The notes under the pieces were generated by a model that did no database searches, was not told the DNA's origin, and saw nothing but the letters and a program-made list of their open reading frames with translations. Position numbers and translations under genes: made by a program. 64,000 bases of DNA from assembly GCA_036172245.1 (NCBI GenBank), contig JAYWIR010000042.1, forward strand, positions 992,001 through 1,056,000. The letters are read 5' to 3'. Positions 3,256 through 44,450 of this stretch are shown here, in pieces; position 1 is the stretch's first letter, and each line of letters starts with the position of its first letter. This DNA is from Raillietiella orientalis. Taxonomy: Eukaryota.

Positions 3256-5141
3256 AGGTTCTCATCCGGTTACCTCGAGGCATTTATTTAAAAAATGAAC
3301 TGCAAGGAAGGGGGGAAGAAGGGTATCTCCTCAAAGAAAAGAAAAGTCAAAAAAAAGGTCCATTTATTCGGACTGACCACTGACACACAGGCCAGCTTCC
3401 AAAAAGTTCAGAACGGAGGAAGGGGACAATGAATAAATAAAAAAGGCAAAAGGGCAAGAACAGGGGTCTTTGGCTTAAGACATCCCTTCCTTTCTAGACG
3501 CGGCATTGGATCTCCCTGGCAACTTCTTCTGGCAGATGAGGCCACCACCTCACTGCTGTCCTCATGAAGGCGGCTGCCACGCTGCGGCCTCTCTCCGCCG
3601 CGAAACGGATTCCAACACATGGCGGGCTGTCACTGTGACACGGATGTGACAGATGGTTGCGATCACAACGCTCCTCTTCAGGCCTCCTCAAGTGAAGAAG
3701 CGCCGCAGCAAGCCCGAGGCGGTGGTCTCCGGGTGGAGGAGTGCCAGCGAGAGTCCCCTTCACATGTCTTTCAGGACGCTGCAGCCTAACAGCAGGTATG
3801 GGAACGACTTCATCGCCCCGCATCTGGAACGGCTCGGGGAGGAAAACTCCAGCGGAAACCAGGTGCATGCGTTGGTTGCCGTGGAATCCCCAGTGCGGAA
3901 ACAGCAGAACATTCTGCTTCCACCGGAGCTGGAAAAGGAAAACGCTTACACACAGGGAGGGGTCACGAGTTCCTCGGGGGGGGGGGCACACCAAGCAGCT
4001 CACGAGCCTGGAGTTGTGGCAGCGACTGATGCACTCCTTCTACAACAACCGCTTGCTGCAGCACGTCATCGTGCAACCCGCCGCGTGGGCGCAAGGAACC
4101 TCCATAGCCGCGGCAATGCCCTCCCTCAGGGGAGCACTTGGGTAGTAACCAGCCGTTCAAATGGGAGATCCGATGTGAGATCGGCGGAAGAGCGAAGAAA
4201 TTTGGCAGCTGGACCACGGGCCAGCTCACGAACGCTGCGACCCCAAGTGCCCACCGGAAGCACCATCGCGCTGGGGGGGTGAGCTGCTGGGAATCCCACA
4301 GAAAGACCTCGAGTCTCCACCCAGCGCTGAAGAACAATCGGGCCGACCCTTCCCCCGGAGTGACAGGAGTCGGCGCTTCTGCTGCTGCACTGGGGTATCC
4401 CGTGCAACGCCCGCCGGTCTCACTGGACCCGAGGGCCTGTAGACCCCGACTGTTGCATGTGTGGCAAGCAGGAATCCTCTCCCGCACCTGCTTGTAGACT
4501 GTGTTGCGCTCCTGTCCCTGTGGTTGCGTTACGCAACGGCCCTTGCGGCATCAAAGGACAATCCCAGGGACGTAGTAGAGCGCCTCTTCGTGTGCGATGC
4601 CCTTTCGTCTGCCGCATCCCTAGCAGCTCATTGCTGCCTACGGGAGATTGTGGCGGCCTGGAGCTACGCGATAGGAGGACGGCGCAATGGGGAGGCCATC
4701 TTCTTCGCCCTGAGCTTCACGAAGACGGCAGCTAGATGGACCCACCTTGGCATACTCGGATGGAACTTGCCGGTATCCTGAAAAGGATGCAGACAGGGTA
4801 ACGCCCCCAAATTTTTCGTGTATTTTTTTTTGAATTTCTGTTTGCTCCCTTCCCGTCCTCTGCCAAGGCGAACCTGGCCGGCCCGCGTTCCGGTTACTCG
4901 GCAGGTTCCGAGCATTTTCGGACAATGTGGGTCCGATGGCCCTGCACATGCATGTTTATTTTTTCTAATGAAGGTCCCGGCGTGACACTGTCCCACCGAA
5001 GGAGCCCCTTTGCTCGGAAACGAGGAGTGGCGGAGTTTATCGACTCGCTCTTGTTGCAGCCGCCGACTCCTGCAATAATGCAGGAGAAGGAGAACTCCCA
5101 TCCTGCCGTTCGGCTGCTGTCATTATTTGCCCTAAGGGCAG
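3256..5141 (-). repeat. Left arm of 1886-bp near-perfect inverted repeat
   Basis: Reverse complement of 9421-11306 (paired positions sum to 14562). ORF-track translations mirror exactly, e.g. 3408..3620 vs 10942..11154. One mismatch seen, 3275/11287. Confidence 0.97.
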
Positions 5142-8100
5142 GCAATGTTGCGACAATGGTTGTGACGGCTATCTGGGAACACTGGGTACAGTCCTGCAGG
5201 AGATCTCCCAGCAGATTGCAGGAGTTTCTGTAGCGGTCACAGTTCCTCTAGACGCACTTACAAAGCGGCAACCCAGGACTCCAATGCCTCTTGCTGCCAA
5301 ACGTTCCAGTTTTGGGGGCGACAGGAGATTCACGGGTGAGCTACCAGAAGTGAGGATAAATGTCTCAGAGAGTAGCCAAATCTTATGTGGGTTGCGCAGA
5401 AGCAGCAAAAGTTTTTCTGCGCTACCGGAGGATATGGAGTGCCGGACCACACTGCCACAAGGGGAGAGAAGTTGGAATTGAATTTCCAGTCCGATCTGTT
5501 TAATGATCAGGGTGCACAAGCCAGCGTCCTGGCACGGTGCCACCAAGTCTTTTAGTCGGATCCGATCTTCTAAGAAAAACCTTGCTCCACAAGGCTTTTC
5601 TTAGAATGTTCTGCGTCCAGGTCTCCACCCAATGATGGGTTGGAAAAACAAAAACAAGAGCGAATGAGAAGGACGACAAAGGTATTCCAAATGGAGACCC
5701 TTCTGGCAAGACGAACTTGCCGTCGAGGAACGGGCAGAGAGCCATCAGTGTCTTCTAAGGGAAGTATCGAGGGTGGGACGGCGGGAATGGACACAGCTTC
5801 CGCTGCTAAATCACGACAGGATCAAGACCGATCTGATTACTTGGGGAAGGCTCCCCAAAACAAAGATCAAGATGTATGAAGGCTGAATCAGACACAAGAA
5901 GTCCCGACAGGAACTTCGAATCTTCCTGGCGGACTTCTTCACCCACAGTGTAGGGAACTGAGATCACATGAGCGATTCCGTGCGTCTCTTTTACGAGTGA
6001 AATCCTCATCATCTTATCCAGGGAGACTTTGCCGAAAGGCAGGAGCTCCAAGGAGCCTTCTTTCAGACCCGAACGCTTAGCAGACAGCTGAAGGTTGGGC
6101 TTCTGACTGAGTACTCTGTGATGGTGGGAGAGCACACCTGGCAGTCGGGTGCAGCAGACCTGCTGCCAACGCGAAGGCCAAGTATATATAAAACTCGCCG
6201 AAGCAAGCACGACGTTAGTAAGAAAATGCTCCCCGCTTTGACGCTCGGGCGCCTCCAGACGAGAACTGCCCTGCGCAGCTGTTGGAGGCTTCCAGGAGGA
6301 TTCAAAAACCCTCAACGCTTATAAAAACCGTGGCTATCACTTGGGACCTGGAAGGTGCTCCACCAGATGCTGGCGGGTCGTCTGCTGAGTTCTGCCGCTG
6401 CAACAGAACTGGCGCTGCTGATTCGAGGGACAGACCAAGTGGTCTGCCTCTTTGGAGTCGGTCATGGTTCGCCTCTTATCGGAAGGGTTAACCTGCGACG
6501 CCTGAACTGGCGTCAAGTTGCTCACCAAGGTGTGGAGCGCTCGAATACAGCAGATGGTGGTGGATGGAACCCACAATCAGTCCGGGGCAGACCTGCAGAT
6601 TTCCCAGGTCGAATCGACCTGAACTAAACACCTATCTGCTTCCGATCGCTCGAGTAAGAACTCACGGCCCCTTCCGGAAGCAGCACCTTAATCTCCACGG
6701 GAGTACCGCGCTCGAGAAGGGAGGACAGCCAACCTTTCAAAAGATTTTCGATTGTGTTTCTTCCAAAGTTGCTGAAACGGCTTGGATTTCAGCGGGTCTC
6801 TTCTCCTGCTTGTTTTGCAGTGGAGTAGAGCGAAAACCTCGACCTTTTTCAGCGGTCATCTCTCTCACTAAAGGAATTCATTTCAAGCGGGAACTTTGTC
6901 AGGCAGATATCTTGAAATCTATACTCTAGAGCCTGCTCCCTGAACTGGTGCTGAACGTGGGCCGGTATAGTCCAGTCTGTCTGTCCCCCGGTGGTATGTC
7001 AAACTTTGCGCACGTGCAGCATCCTAATCGAGGGAGGAAACTGAGATGGGATTATTGCTAGTTGAAAACTCTGATGACACGCCTGAAGTGAAAGCCCTTG
7101 CCGACTGACTGCGTCTTCTGCCGGCTGAACAGACCCCAGCAGCAATTGCACTGAAAGCATTCTTCGAATACATCCTCAAAGGTGCCTATCAACAGGTGGA
7201 GGTTGCAAATCGTGGCGCTTGGTTCCTTGATGGATGCTGAGCGGTCTTCTTTAAGAGCTTCTATGGTGGGTTTGCTACTTATCTGGGGACACCCATGAAT
7301 TCGTTTCCCTCTAGAGAGGTCCAGACTGAGTCTCTCGGCGTCTCCCGTTATAACTTCAAGATTAACGGGATTCCTTGTCGGCGCCTGCGTCCTGGCTCTT
7401 CTTCACCAGCAGAATGCCATCCCGCTGGTGCACTGGACTCTTCCCCGAAAAGAAGTCACCACGCCTCAGCGAGGAAATTTTCAGGGATAGTGGAAACACT
7501 ACAGCGCGTATTGCAGCAGGATCTCGGGTTAGTCACTTTTACGAAGGCTTCATTACCTCATGTTTCCTTGCCTTCTGCATGTAGGTGATGGCCGCTACAA
7601 GCGGTTCCCCGGAATGACGGAACGATGGCTGCACGCTTTCTCCATTTCGGCGGCGAGCGTTTCCTACATATGGCAGGAAGAGCACCACAGTGGGAGCAGT
7701 TGGTGAACTTGGTAAACCGGAGTGGCTCAGTGATGCTCTTCATTCGTAGTGTTCTTTCTCTGGCCATCTCTGAGGCAGCCTTCCGCATCTAAGAAGCGCA
7801 TGTGCAGGGTTCCCACCATCCCGCTAGGGAATCTGTTATTTTGTTTTTGATAAAGGATGTTTCATCCCTGGAACTTCATCAGAGAAAGGGTCTCTGGTTC
7901 GAGTTTCCGAAGGCCAGCAGGGGCAAAGCAAACGGAGATGCAGGATAATCCCTGTCTTGCCTCCTGCCGCTTCTGTTGACATGAGTATTCTCATTCACGT
8001 ACAAAGCAGCTGCCCAAGCATGGCTGAGATTTTTCGGCATCTTGCTTTACAAGGGCTTTTGAGCTACTGCGAGAACAGCTTTTGCCCGTCCCCAACAAAA

Positions 8101-9420: not shown

Positions 9421-11306
9421 CTGCCCTTAGGGCAAATAATGACAGCAGCCGAACGGCAGGATGGGAGTTCTCCTTCTCCTGCATTATTGCAGGAGTCGGC
9501 GGCTGCAACAAGAGCGAGTCGATAAACTCCGCCACTCCTCGTTTCCGAGCAAAGGGGCTCCTTCGGTGGGACAGTGTCACGCCGGGACCTTCATTAGAAA
9601 AAATAAACATGCATGTGCAGGGCCATCGGACCCACATTGTCCGAAAATGCTCGGAACCTGCCGAGTAACCGGAACGCGGGCCGGCCAGGTTCGCCTTGGC
9701 AGAGGACGGGAAGGGAGCAAACAGAAATTCAAAAAAAAATACACGAAAAATTTGGGGGCGTTACCCTGTCTGCATCCTTTTCAGGATACCGGCAAGTTCC
9801 ATCCGAGTATGCCAAGGTGGGTCCATCTAGCTGCCGTCTTCGTGAAGCTCAGGGCGAAGAAGATGGCCTCCCCATTGCGCCGTCCTCCTATCGCGTAGCT
9901 CCAGGCCGCCACAATCTCCCGTAGGCAGCAATGAGCTGCTAGGGATGCGGCAGACGAAAGGGCATCGCACACGAAGAGGCGCTCTACTACGTCCCTGGGA
10001 TTGTCCTTTGATGCCGCAAGGGCCGTTGCGTAACGCAACCACAGGGACAGGAGCGCAACACAGTCTACAAGCAGGTGCGGGAGAGGATTCCTGCTTGCCA
10101 CACATGCAACAGTCGGGGTCTACAGGCCCTCGGGTCCAGTGAGACCGGCGGGCGTTGCACGGGATACCCCAGTGCAGCAGCAGAAGCGCCGACTCCTGTC
10201 ACTCCGGGGGAAGGGTCGGCCCGATTGTTCTTCAGCGCTGGGTGGAGACTCGAGGTCTTTCTGTGGGATTCCCAGCAGCTCACCCCCCCAGCGCGATGGT
10301 GCTTCCGGTGGGCACTTGGGGTCGCAGCGTTCGTGAGCTGGCCCGTGGTCCAGCTGCCAAATTTCTTCGCTCTTCCGCCGATCTCACATCGGATCTCCCA
10401 TTTGAACGGCTGGTTACTACCCAAGTGCTCCCCTGAGGGAGGGCATTGCCGCGGCTATGGAGGTTCCTTGCGCCCACGCGGCGGGTTGCACGATGACGTG
10501 CTGCAGCAAGCGGTTGTTGTAGAAGGAGTGCATCAGTCGCTGCCACAACTCCAGGCTCGTGAGCTGCTTGGTGTGCCCCCCCCCCCGAGGAACTCGTGAC
10601 CCCTCCCTGTGTGTAAGCGTTTTCCTTTTCCAGCTCCGGTGGAAGCAGAATGTTCTGCTGTTTCCGCACTGGGGATTCCACGGCAACCAACGCATGCACC
10701 TGGTTTCCGCTGGAGTTTTCCTCCCCGAGCCGTTCCAGATGCGGGGCGATGAAGTCGTTCCCATACCTGCTGTTAGGCTGCAGCGTCCTGAAAGACATGT
10801 GAAGGGGACTCTCGCTGGCACTCCTCCACCCGGAGACCACCGCCTCGGGCTTGCTGCGGCGCTTCTTCACTTGAGGAGGCCTGAAGAGGAGCGTTGTGAT
10901 CGCAACCATCTGTCACATCCGTGTCACAGTGACAGCCCGCCATGTGTTGGAATCCGTTTCGCGGCGGAGAGAGGCCGCAGCGTGGCAGCCGCCTTCATGA
11001 GGACAGCAGTGAGGTGGTGGCCTCATCTGCCAGAAGAAGTTGCCAGGGAGATCCAATGCCGCGTCTAGAAAGGAAGGGATGTCTTAAGCCAAAGACCCCT
11101 GTTCTTGCCCTTTTGCCTTTTTTATTTATTCATTGTCCCCTTCCTCCGTTCTGAACTTTTTGGAAGCTGGCCTGTGTGTCAGTGGTCAGTCCGAATAAAT
11201 GGACCTTTTTTTTGACTTTTCTTTTCTTTGAGGAGATACCCTTCTTCCCCCCTTCCTTGCAGTTCATTTTTTAAATAAATGCCTCGGGGTAACCGGATGA
11301 GAACCT
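9421..11306 (+). repeat. Right arm of 1886-bp near-perfect inverted repeat
   Basis: Reverse complement of 3256-5141. Confidence 0.97.
9740..11281 (+). mobile_element. 3' part of a degenerate L1/Tx1-like non-LTR element with decayed zinc knuckle and T-rich 3' UTR (mirrored in the left arm)
   Basis: RSRCGAMKSFPYLLLGC at ~10731-10781 matches the CxxCG..E...HL..C knuckle. It is followed by a stop, a pyrimidine-rich UTR and AATAAATG ends at ~11194 and ~11274. Confidence 0.55.
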
Positions 11307-31721: not shown

Positions 31722-36015
<4,294 letters not shown>

Positions 36016-41199: not shown

Positions 41200-42033
41200 C
41201 GATGACAGCCGTGGCGAAAGGAGTAGAGACTTGGCGAGGCAAGTTTTTTCGAGAGAAGTGGTCCTGAGTGAAGCAATCCCAGGTCCCATCTCACACAACC
41301 CCTCAGCGAAGACTTGGCTCTTTTGATTGGGCGGCTGGGGAATCCAAAGAACTCGGCGTCATAATGACTGTTGGATATCGGAGCGTGGTCCTGGATGGTA
41401 AGGTATGGACGAAACCCCGCTTCAAATAGAATGGCAAAAGGAAGACAACCTGAGCGCCACCTATCTTCTCGATCTTCACTGGCAAAGACCTGTGTGTCGG
41501 CGAACAACACTACACTTGGGTGTGACTTCAGCCTAGGCATGATCGGGTGATGCAGAAATCAAACAAGATGACTATTCTTGAAGTCTCCTGTCCGTTCGAT
41601 AGCACCGAGAAGGTATTTAACCTCACCTGAATGGAAAAAGAAGAGAAATGCCAGGAGATGGTCTTACTGTTGAGAAAAAAAGGACTTCAGACTGAAGTCA
41701 GAGGAATCCTTTATCGGTGCATTGGGAACCTGGAAACCACGGGACGATGTAGTAATCTGCAAGTTAGGTATCCCGAATCGGTATGCAGGAACAATGAGGC
41801 ACTGATGGTGGTCTTGTGCATCCAACACGGCATGGGTATTCACTGGGAGCACCGTCTGGCACATCCTACAGGTGATGCCATAATTGCACGAAGACAAGAA
41901 ACAGCTGCAAAAGAGGGAGTCTTTCATTCGAACCCTTGAAAAGTGAAGAATCTGTTAGCTGAAGACAGAAGGATTCGACAGAAACATTCTCTTGATATTT
42001 TTATGTACTAATACTGGAATAACTTAAATGAAA
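41200..42033 (+). mobile_element. 3' end of a NeSL/Utopia-type RLE non-LTR retrotransposon (degenerate)
   Basis: RRHN (41354-41365); RHDRV...ILEVSCPFD (PD..D-type, 41535-41600); EKEEKC (K..KY-like); IGALGTW (41713-41733, after a frameshift); LGIPNRY..M, LMVV..I....IHWEH (to 41852). AT-rich 3' UTR abuts U2 sequence. Confidence 0.85.
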
Positions 42034-42152
42034 TCTGTTCTTATCAGCTTAATATCTGATGCGTCACCTATCTGATGGTCAATGTATTAAACTACTTTTT
42101 GGAAGTGGACAAGATGCTTGGAGCTTGCTCCTCTCCTGTCGCGAGTTGACCC
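42034..42152 (+). pseudogene. RNU2: U2 snRNA copy lacking the first ~38 nt and the 3' terminal stem-loop IV
   Basis: TCTGTTCTTATCAGCTTAATATCTGAT (U2 nt ~39-65, stem IIa), Sm-like ACTTTTTGG, GGAGCTTGCTCC (stem-loop III), CTGTCGCGAGTTGACCC. Colinear with remembered human and fly U2. Confidence 0.92.
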
Positions 42153-42439
42153 AGATCGAGATGGAACAGCAGTCGAGCATGTTATTTTGTAGAAGGATCA
42201 AAAGGGGCCTCGTAACGGCTACAAGAGGACGGTGGAAGACAGACATGATCATCTTCACACCAGGACTTAACGTGGAAAACAGCAGTCCGTCTCTGATTAT
42301 TAAAGTATCTAAAGGATGGCGCTTGCGTATGCGTCTAAGGGCAGTCCAAGCAGTGAGGATGGAGAACTGGCAGGAAGGAAGTGGATAGGAGCAGAGGTTG
42401 ATGTAACATTTCTGTAGAGTTCTTCATGTTGATGGGTCT

Positions 42440-44450
42440 CTGATACCAAGTTCCTGAATCCGTGGATGAAGCCTTTCGTTCCCCTTCCCTCCCCCAGAAA
42501 GCGCGGGCAGCATCCTGGCATACGAGGGCACCGGAAATCTGATGTCACACCGACGACCTCGTGGTCCGGGGAGAGGAAGCAGCTCCGAGTCAGGAAGGCT
42601 TCAGCCTTGGGCTTCATCGCGCGAGGGAGAGTTCCTGGAATGAGAGAACCAGGAAGGAGGGAGAAGGCAATCTTAGACGGGGGACCTCCTTCAGTCCTGT
42701 TTCCCCGGAGATTTGCCGACCCCGAGGCGAAGAGAGAGGAGGCGGAGGAAGGAGGCTCCGCCCTCGAGGAATGAGCGGTGGAGGAGGAGGGTAAGGGAAT
42801 TCTCTGCTTCCAGGACGCCGATTCTCCGACGTAATCACCGACCCGAATGGCGGCAGACGATTCCGGTGGCGGTATCCGCCCACAAGGAAGGAATTGGTCT
42901 TGCTCTCCGTTTCCATTCCTCCACTTCGAAGGACGGAGCTCAGCATCCCAGCTATCCGGGAAGAATGCGACGATACTTCTCCGCGTCCGCCTTCCGGCAC
43001 GACCGCCTCTCTTTCTCCTCTTTCCCCGCCAGAGGGCTGCGTATCCAGGAGCTCGGAGTTCCCTTGTCGTCGAGGTCTCACTGGCCGTCCTCCTCGTATG
43101 GGGGCGCAGGAAGGTTGATAGGTGGTTCGACCACCAGCCCGAGTCCGCGCGACCTACCAGCGACGGCCTCCCGAGAGGAACCCGCTGCTCGCCGGCGAGA
43201 CGGCTCTTCAGGAGCGGGTGCTGGCGTTTTTCCTAGGCAGAAAGAAGGGACTGGAGAGAGATCATATTCCCGCAACCCCTTCGTTTGTTTCCTGGCCCTT
43301 CTGCCCTCCACTTTCGGGAAGCCACTTCTAACTGGAGCTCCCAAAGTCGTGTGCTGGACATCGGTCCACTTGGCACGGTCTCACCCCGATCCCACGCTCG
43401 TATTGCTGCTGCTGAGGTCACACGAAGCGCACGCCTCACAAGAAAGGACCGGGACACGGGGGAACAGAGAGTGAGGATGGGAGCTGGGATGCCTACAGAA
43501 GAGAATTCCCGAGTCTTCTACTGGGAGCGTCATGTGGAGGAGAGCAGGAAGGCGTCAGATGGGTCAGAGCATGGCCGCACGTCAGGAGCAGGTTGGGACG
43601 AAGCCATCCCAGAAGAGGCGCTTTCATTCTTCTCCGCCATCTGTCCGGGGAGACACCCTTCCATCACCTCTCTGCGATGCTGCCCCACGAGGCTGCTGAT
43701 CCTGGAGCATCTCGAGAACGACTCGTCCAAACTTCTTCTCTCGCCTCCGTTTCACCCCCTTGGACTCCCCGCACTTCAGATCTGACCTTGCGTTCGCCAC
43801 CGTCCCCATGCTTCTTCCCTAATTCTTCCTCCCTTGATCGGAGTCGTCCTGACAGCTCCCGACTCCTTTCCTCCTTTTCTTCTTCCTTGCTTCTCCTTTC
43901 CCCAAGACTGCAAGTCGAAAAAAAAAAGAAAGAAAGAAAAGAAATCAATCGTTCTCTTTATCGGAGGAACATGCTGTTTATTCCTTTACCGGAACCAGGG
44001 ACTTTCCTCCCCCTCTTCCATCACCTTCTTGCAGCCTCTGCAGAGAGGAAAGGAAGACGGTTCCCACGCTCCAGCATCTGACGGCGTTCCAATGAACGAG
44101 GAGCTCGGCAGAAGTTATTGCTGCAAAAATGGGACTTGGGATCCCGTCTCCCTCCCATCTTTCCGTCTCGTTTCACTCGCGAATCATAAAACCCCATGAA
44201 GCAGCCGTTCTTTACACCCATTCGGCTTACACTTGTTTTCGTGCGTGCGTGTAATGCACGCGGCAGCGTTCGTTCCCGCGCAACCCATCCCACGAGAACG
44301 AAGAAAAACTACCAGGCTCCTCACTACCATCTGCGACCTGGCATCTCCGCGCATCTTTTCCGCATCCGTCCAGATGCTTTCTTGTTTTCCCGGACCAACC
44401 CTTGGTTGGTCCGAACACGTCACTTTCGTGCATCATCTTTCCTTCCCTTC
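42440..44450 (+). mobile_element. Degenerate I/Jockey-like non-LTR element (gag and RT remnants)
   Basis: KPFVPLPSPRK....GHRKSD (pre-knuckle gag pattern, 42466 frame); DPVSLPSFRLVSL (P..YRPISL-like, ~44140-44180). Confidence 0.4.

Follow-up and report, generated by a model that had tools for sequence, protein, structure and literature searches.

Utopia retrotransposons, which belong to the NeSL clade, are defined by the junction of their 3' ends with the U2 snRNA gene and by a restriction-like endonuclease (RLE), and are on record for 21 arthropod species (Kojima and Jurka 2015, PMC4640811). As described there, several Utopia families occur per genome, the arthropod families make no target-site duplications (TSDs) and interrupted U2 pieces outnumber intact genes. 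These features, together with the RLE C-terminus and the U2 3' junction, recur in the elements that we analysed in Raillietiella orientalis. In contrast to the published families, most junction loci here lie outside U2 genes or arrays and are dispersed and promoterless, with U2 and flanking sequence that runs to ragged ends. The main text of PMC4640811 contains no occurrence of "transduc", "promoter" or "pseudogene", and the off-target crocodilian copies that it describes carry only short U2-like motifs. Keno elements, of the Tx1 clade, share the U2 3' junction (PMC4640811) but have an apurinic-like endonuclease, and the RLE motifs in the remnant described below thus argue against Keno. A further point of comparison is provided by tailless retropseudogenes (PMC5322556, PMC2912911), which are 3'-truncated, promoterless copies of RNA without poly(A) and to that extent resemble the loci described here; as described, these involve mammalian L1 and have TSDs, whereas the junction class here has none.

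The window, that is, the whole stretch of 64,000 nucleotides analysed here (contig JAYWIR010000042.1, positions 992,001 to 1,056,000 of the forward strand), holds a dead remnant, ~540 bp long, that its sequence identifies as the 3' end of a Utopia-type RLE retrotransposon. A DNA profile (nhmmer) built from nine sibling copies and covering 955 positions matched 41491–42032 only (E 5e-110), starting at profile position 418, so that the element does not begin at 41200 as the first-pass annotation had it; sibling copies reach hundreds of bases further 5' than the window copy. The coding remnant (41491–41960, + strand, the 3' limit being approximate) was matched in two frames (E 3e-10 and 4e-6) by a protein profile made from 83 homologous C-termini. 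It is disabled by an in-frame stop at 41628–41630 and by frameshifts near 41533, 41708 and 41802. The C-terminal restriction-like (PD..D/ExK) endonuclease is recognizable from decayed core motifs, namely an RPD-like RHD (41535–41543), ILEV/PFD, K..EK, GALGTW (41716–41733) and IHWEH (41838–41852). Thus, the RLE motifs named previously stand at their core, with the exception of RHN (41357–41365), which falls outside the profile match and lies 178 bp from the RHD, compared to ~96 bp in relatives. The reverse transcriptase (RT) and zinc knuckle are gone. Of the parts that make up the single Utopia ORF, the N-terminal zinc fingers, the RT and the CCHC finger are all missing from the 5'-truncated window copy; RT and RLE are present in a U2-flanked sibling (L080), and N-terminal fingers in a sibling copy at C57. 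An AT-rich 3' UTR (41961–42033, + strand), which aligns with sibling UTRs, completes the remnant and ends in AAA. Three adjacent ORFs, GC-rich or antisense, had no match in Pfam. The locus is a dead fossil, and nothing in it points to function.

The AAA abuts TCTGTTCTTATCAG at 42033/42034, exactly as first annotated, and this junction is the published Utopia 3' junction (S1 Fig of PMC4640811). The same joining of the Utopia 3' end to U2 at the TCTGTTCT site is found in sibling loci. Since the target site of the host genome has one extra A, the tail begins at U2 nt 40; Kojima and Jurka (PMC4640811) number the same site nt 39. The U2 segment (nt 40–158; 42034–42152, + strand) measures 119 nt to 42152–42155, in agreement with the ~120 nt proposed earlier, and the Rfam U2 model (RF00004) recognizes it with 63.5 bits, above the gathering score of 46. 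The alignment extends from the junction to ~42152 and takes in stem IIa/IIb, the Sm-site region and stem III; the tail also contains the start of stem IV and ends before the U2 3' end. Its identity with the U2 3' part of the promoter-bearing locus C389 is 92%. No poly(A) follows the tail at the window locus, where unique DNA comes next (the downstream flank, 42153–42700, is single-copy), and the TSD test at this locus was negative.

Sequence comparisons place the remnant among its siblings. A long relative in the genome shares 35–46% identity with arthropod proteins from Ixodes scapularis, Acyrthosiphon pisum and Dendroctonus ponderosae, species that PMC4640811 lists with Utopia, the matched records themselves not being tied to named families; the similarity to R2 structures is lower (best E 2e-65). 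In a 30-row tree, to which the window contributes 104 residues only, the window copy groups with U2-flanked siblings and all of this genome's elements fall into a single clade (SH-aLRT 100), next to arthropod proteins that include those of Ixodes and Acyrthosiphon, in a set of rows without R2/R4/HERO outgroups or named Repbase references. FastTree on 69 rows agrees, the smaller tree having left out 39 shorter or redundant rows. That the window sequence is a Utopia-type fossil at a U2 junction is near certain: the junction, the RLE profile and the grouping with U2-flanked siblings all bear out the first-pass annotation. Its suggestion that the family might be new for this lineage is a modest claim, as the host is likely an arthropod and Utopia is already recorded from arthropods (PMC4640811).

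Further features of the window are as follows. A U4-like Rfam match (7002–7184, + strand, 46.7 bits), good in its 5' half and poor in its 3' half, is probably a truncated pseudogene; it yielded no shared promoter motif. It lies between the arms of a perfect 1886-bp inverted repeat (3256–5141 and 9421–11306, arms 4279 bp apart), and similar inverted pairs on other contigs represent either real duplication or assembly artefact. A compact NEDD4-like HECT/WW gene (~33455–35990, + strand), the best named matches of which are arthropod (69–73%), so that the host is likely an arthropod without close relatives among those sampled, stands tail to tail with a 5-formyltetrahydrofolate cyclo-ligase gene (PF01812; 36041–36530, − strand).

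The insertion site of the group in promoter-bearing U2 genes lies between nt 38 and nt 40. At C389, a promoter and U2 1–38 are followed by a 1.4-kb truncated element and then by U2 from nt 40 onward; at C482, a promoter and U2 1–38 are followed by the 5' end of an element. Insertion into real U2 genes is thus found at these two loci, whereas the window copy has no promoter. A rearranged U2/Utopia cluster lies at the end of C30, and its decayed promoters are still 82–88% identical. An 823-bp promoter query gave seven matches, all of them on C389, C482, C450 and the cluster at the C30 end and none dispersed, although older U2 promoters are perhaps too diverged for a probe taken from C389. No intact U2 gene was found in the assembly by Rfam, with 47 of 5640 candidates scored, or by pattern. 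An assembly gap is the most likely explanation, and we do not take this result as evidence of U2 loss; the genes are probably unassembled, because promoter-linked U2 pieces sit on tiny contigs (557–2682 bp) or at a contig end. With no intact U2 gene found, the comparisons that follow cover interrupted and dispersed copies rather than source genes and empty alleles.

By contrast with these gene-linked places, the junction itself is widespread. We examined 47 distinct junction loci (40 and then 6 that were fetched, plus the window), drawn from an Rfam search with at least 46 U2 matches (47 of 5640 candidates scored) and a DNA search with 41; because loci were found through the U2 3' part, the set is biased towards junction-bearing pieces. 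All 47 have the junction, and those at C389 and C30 are gene-linked. The remaining 45 are dispersed and promoterless, as judged from the fetched DNA of the first 41 loci and from the genome-wide promoter search, and they share no upstream flank other than element sequence. AA lies within 4 nt of the junction in 43 of the 47 loci. Downstream, U2 and a common flank run to ragged ends between +83 and +417, and 34 of the 47 pass nt +153, approximately the mature U2 end. RLE coding remnants are kept in at least 22 of the first 41 loci, which include several families with different UTRs, and in six dispersed copies the U2 3' part has an identity of at least 94% with that of C389. Among the loci examined, no intact full-length element flanked by U2 was found. 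TSDs showed no excess (4/45 loci versus 22/270 in the null), and the search for empty sites in the fetched DNA was informative at 1 of the 47 loci. At the C32 locus, a U2 stub lies 4.1 kb upstream; it was considered as a 5' junction and rejected, since neither element sequence nor a promoter connects the two. Seven loci (L022, L023, L037, L043, L047, L051 and L054) hold an inverted, diverged U2-like copy in the shared downstream flank, ~270–345 nt after the junction; at L054 the UTRs of the inverted and the main copy belong to one family.

These data make the main reading of the first-pass annotation, a disrupted U2 gene that was later fragmented or relocated, less likely: 45 of the 47 loci have no promoter, the promoter occurs at four gene-linked places only, and one unit lies whole within a foreign repeat. 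The alternative that had been offered alongside it, 3' transduction of target sequence, fits better. The unit in the foreign repeat is that at C19 (L082), where ~45 bp of UTR, U2 from nt 40 to its end and ~260 bp of flank split a repeat of which three other loci hold intact copies. About 4 bp of the target were lost at the insertion, 13 bp were duplicated in inverted orientation and no TSD was left. Because this unit interrupts a foreign repeat, the U2 tail travelled with the element at least once. The junction resembles break repair and could equally be the product of DNA-templated repair.

A second set of copies begins with U2. Those at C57, C9, C15 and C44 start at, or no more than 3 nt from, U2 +1, and the DNA upstream of them is unrelated; the junction at C57 is that of promoter-bearing C482, again with unrelated DNA upstream of +1, and C44 is a complete cap-element-tail unit without a promoter. 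A clear cap within 3 kb was found at 1 of the 45 dispersed loci, in addition to a weak one in the window. The latter is a decayed match to U2 nt 5–28 (41465–41490, + strand) directly at the 5' break of the element, with 19 of 24 letters matching and a 2-nt insertion. Its score of 24.5 is equalled or beaten by 31 of 18274 45-nt window segments (p ~0.002 per segment), and it is more diverged than the U2 tail (~75% versus 92% identity). The match, which was sought with a cap in mind, is no more than suggestive of a remnant U2 5' cap. Thus, the U2 5' part reported as absent upstream may be represented by this segment, while the reported absence of a promoter holds (comparison score 12, null median 17.5). 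Were the cap real, the source gene of the window copy would already have held a truncated insertion, as C389 does. Nine bases of the cap-like segment (41467–41475) match, in inverted orientation, the first bases after the U2 tail (42153–42161), which may be chance or a repair footprint.

U2 5' ends also occur on their own. Genome-wide, we counted 198 dispersed U2 5' stubs (for example L066–L075 and L155–L171), and only 3 of 27 stub loci run on into Utopia. The U2 segment that ends at nt 38 has 20 exact matches. The promoter accompanies two of these, three (C57, C9, C15) lack it and run into Utopia, and in the other 15 no Utopia follows. The 26 stubs tested end at nt 33–38 and carry short duplications more often than the null (9/26 versus 8/104, p 0.009), which indicates that U2-initiated RNA is often retrocopied in this genome. 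These 33–38-nt stubs fit the class of tailless retropseudogenes as described in PMC5322556 and PMC2912911. Inverted copies of their own ends are seen at some stubs (L066, L162).

We favour, with modest confidence, the reading that the window unit is a promoterless copy of an RNA that read through from a U2 promoter, in other words a transduction of the target gene. The U2 promoter would transcribe U2(1–38), the element, U2(40–190) and the flank as a single RNA with ragged 3' ends. In the interrupted U2 gene, where the 3' box is distant, 3'-end formation would be leaky. At off-target breaks, reverse transcription, by the RT of the element itself or of another LINE, would be primed inside the U2 tail or the flank, giving copies that are tailless, promoterless and often 5'-truncated. 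L1 3' transduction likewise produces RNA copies; here, in contrast to that process and to tailless copies, a chimeric snRNA-retrotransposon RNA would serve as the template. We deduce the RNA route from the pattern of loci rather than from a direct mark; with no TSD excess and no poly(A), nothing at the window locus itself marks an RNA intermediate. The small number of loci with caps, and of stub loci that run on into Utopia, also speaks against this reading. The caps alone might stem from template switching, as in snRNA-L1 chimeras (PMC13174262, PMC4494074), although this could not explain the 3' tail.

Alternatively, Utopia may have inserted into a promoterless, 3'-truncated U2 pseudogene (nt 1–158) that already stood at the window locus. 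This predicts a cap, a truncated element and U2 40–158 with neither promoter nor TSD, as seen at C44 and, if the cap is real, in the window, and it accords with the abundance of U2 retrocopies and with the description of arthropod Utopia as making no TSD (PMC4640811). Yet no long uninterrupted U2 pseudogene was found: the five matches that span the site are all short, and the best Rfam matches are the junction loci themselves (47 of 5640 candidates scored). C19, which has no U2 5' part and splits its host repeat, is also left unexplained, and we regard such an insertion as unlikely.

A route at the DNA level, in which double-strand breaks were filled with fragments of a U2/Utopia cluster or such fragments moved by duplication, with no RNA step, would account for the missing TSD and poly(A) and for the repair-like junction at C19, and it is in line with the perfect inverted duplications in this genome and the rearranged cluster at the C30 end. 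Several observations speak against it: no promoter pieces are dispersed, the four capped copies begin at the transcription start and the A-rich element end is kept at the junction in 43 of 47 loci. DNA capture thus seems quite improbable. Least of all do we credit a functional U2 gene at this position that was struck by Utopia and whose promoter and 3' end later disappeared through deletion or decay, for although such insertions exist in the genome (C389, C482) and U2 5' fragments are missing upstream of Phytophthora copies (PMC4640811), no promoter similarity remains upstream, even though the decayed C30 promoters are still recognizable, the loci have no non-element upstream flank in common and separate deletions would be required at 45 of them.

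The relatives of these elements are not confined to U2. At a site in antisense 28S rDNA, seven of nine exact matches are preceded by element UTRs and two by intact 28S; the loci of this family are L119, L138, L142, L143, L149, L150, L175, L181 and L182 (on C81, C83, C72, C31, C33, C249 and C391). Three 28S 5' junctions imply a target loss of 28–29 bp, which presumably includes the R2 site. The 28S clade (SH-aLRT 100) is nested among U2-linked lineages (99.8) and contains apparently non-specific copies, its sister pairing having a support of only 67.8. LIN24_SM, LIN26_SM and LIN9_SM of Schmidtea (S6 Fig of PMC4640811) are NeSL-related and lie antisense in 28S rDNA, as does the sister family here, but the 3' junctions of LIN24_SM and LIN26_SM are ~75 nt, and that of LIN9_SM further, from the site used here. 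The portions of PMC5035012 covered describe no such antisense 28S case. Two other groups of related RLE families (L131, L134, L139, L144 and L145; L141, L146 and L147) have 3' ends that join neither U2 nor 28S, and one of them falls inside the 28S clade, which suggests loss of specificity.

Utopia in arthropods was already known, and what is distinctive here is the dispersal of units composed of element plus target. This is described neither in the text of the Utopia paper (PMC4640811) nor in the open-licence literature searched, although Repbase reports or other parts of the supplements could hold it. Extending the read-through reading to the whole genome, it is possible, if short of probable, that Utopia rides the U2 promoter, that U2-element-U2 RNAs have been retrotransposed genome-wide with export of the target gene, that retrocopies make up most of the "disrupted U2 genes" of such a genome and that the same radiation gave rise to the antisense-28S branch that removes the R2 site. 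In the text of PMC4640811, Kojima and Jurka leave open how several Utopia families persist in ~10 U2 genes when interrupted copies exceed intact ones. Should many of the interrupted copies be promoterless retrocopies, counts of them would overstate the load on U2, and it would become testable how an RLE element that targets snRNA genes is transcribed, namely from a host promoter by way of read-through RNA.
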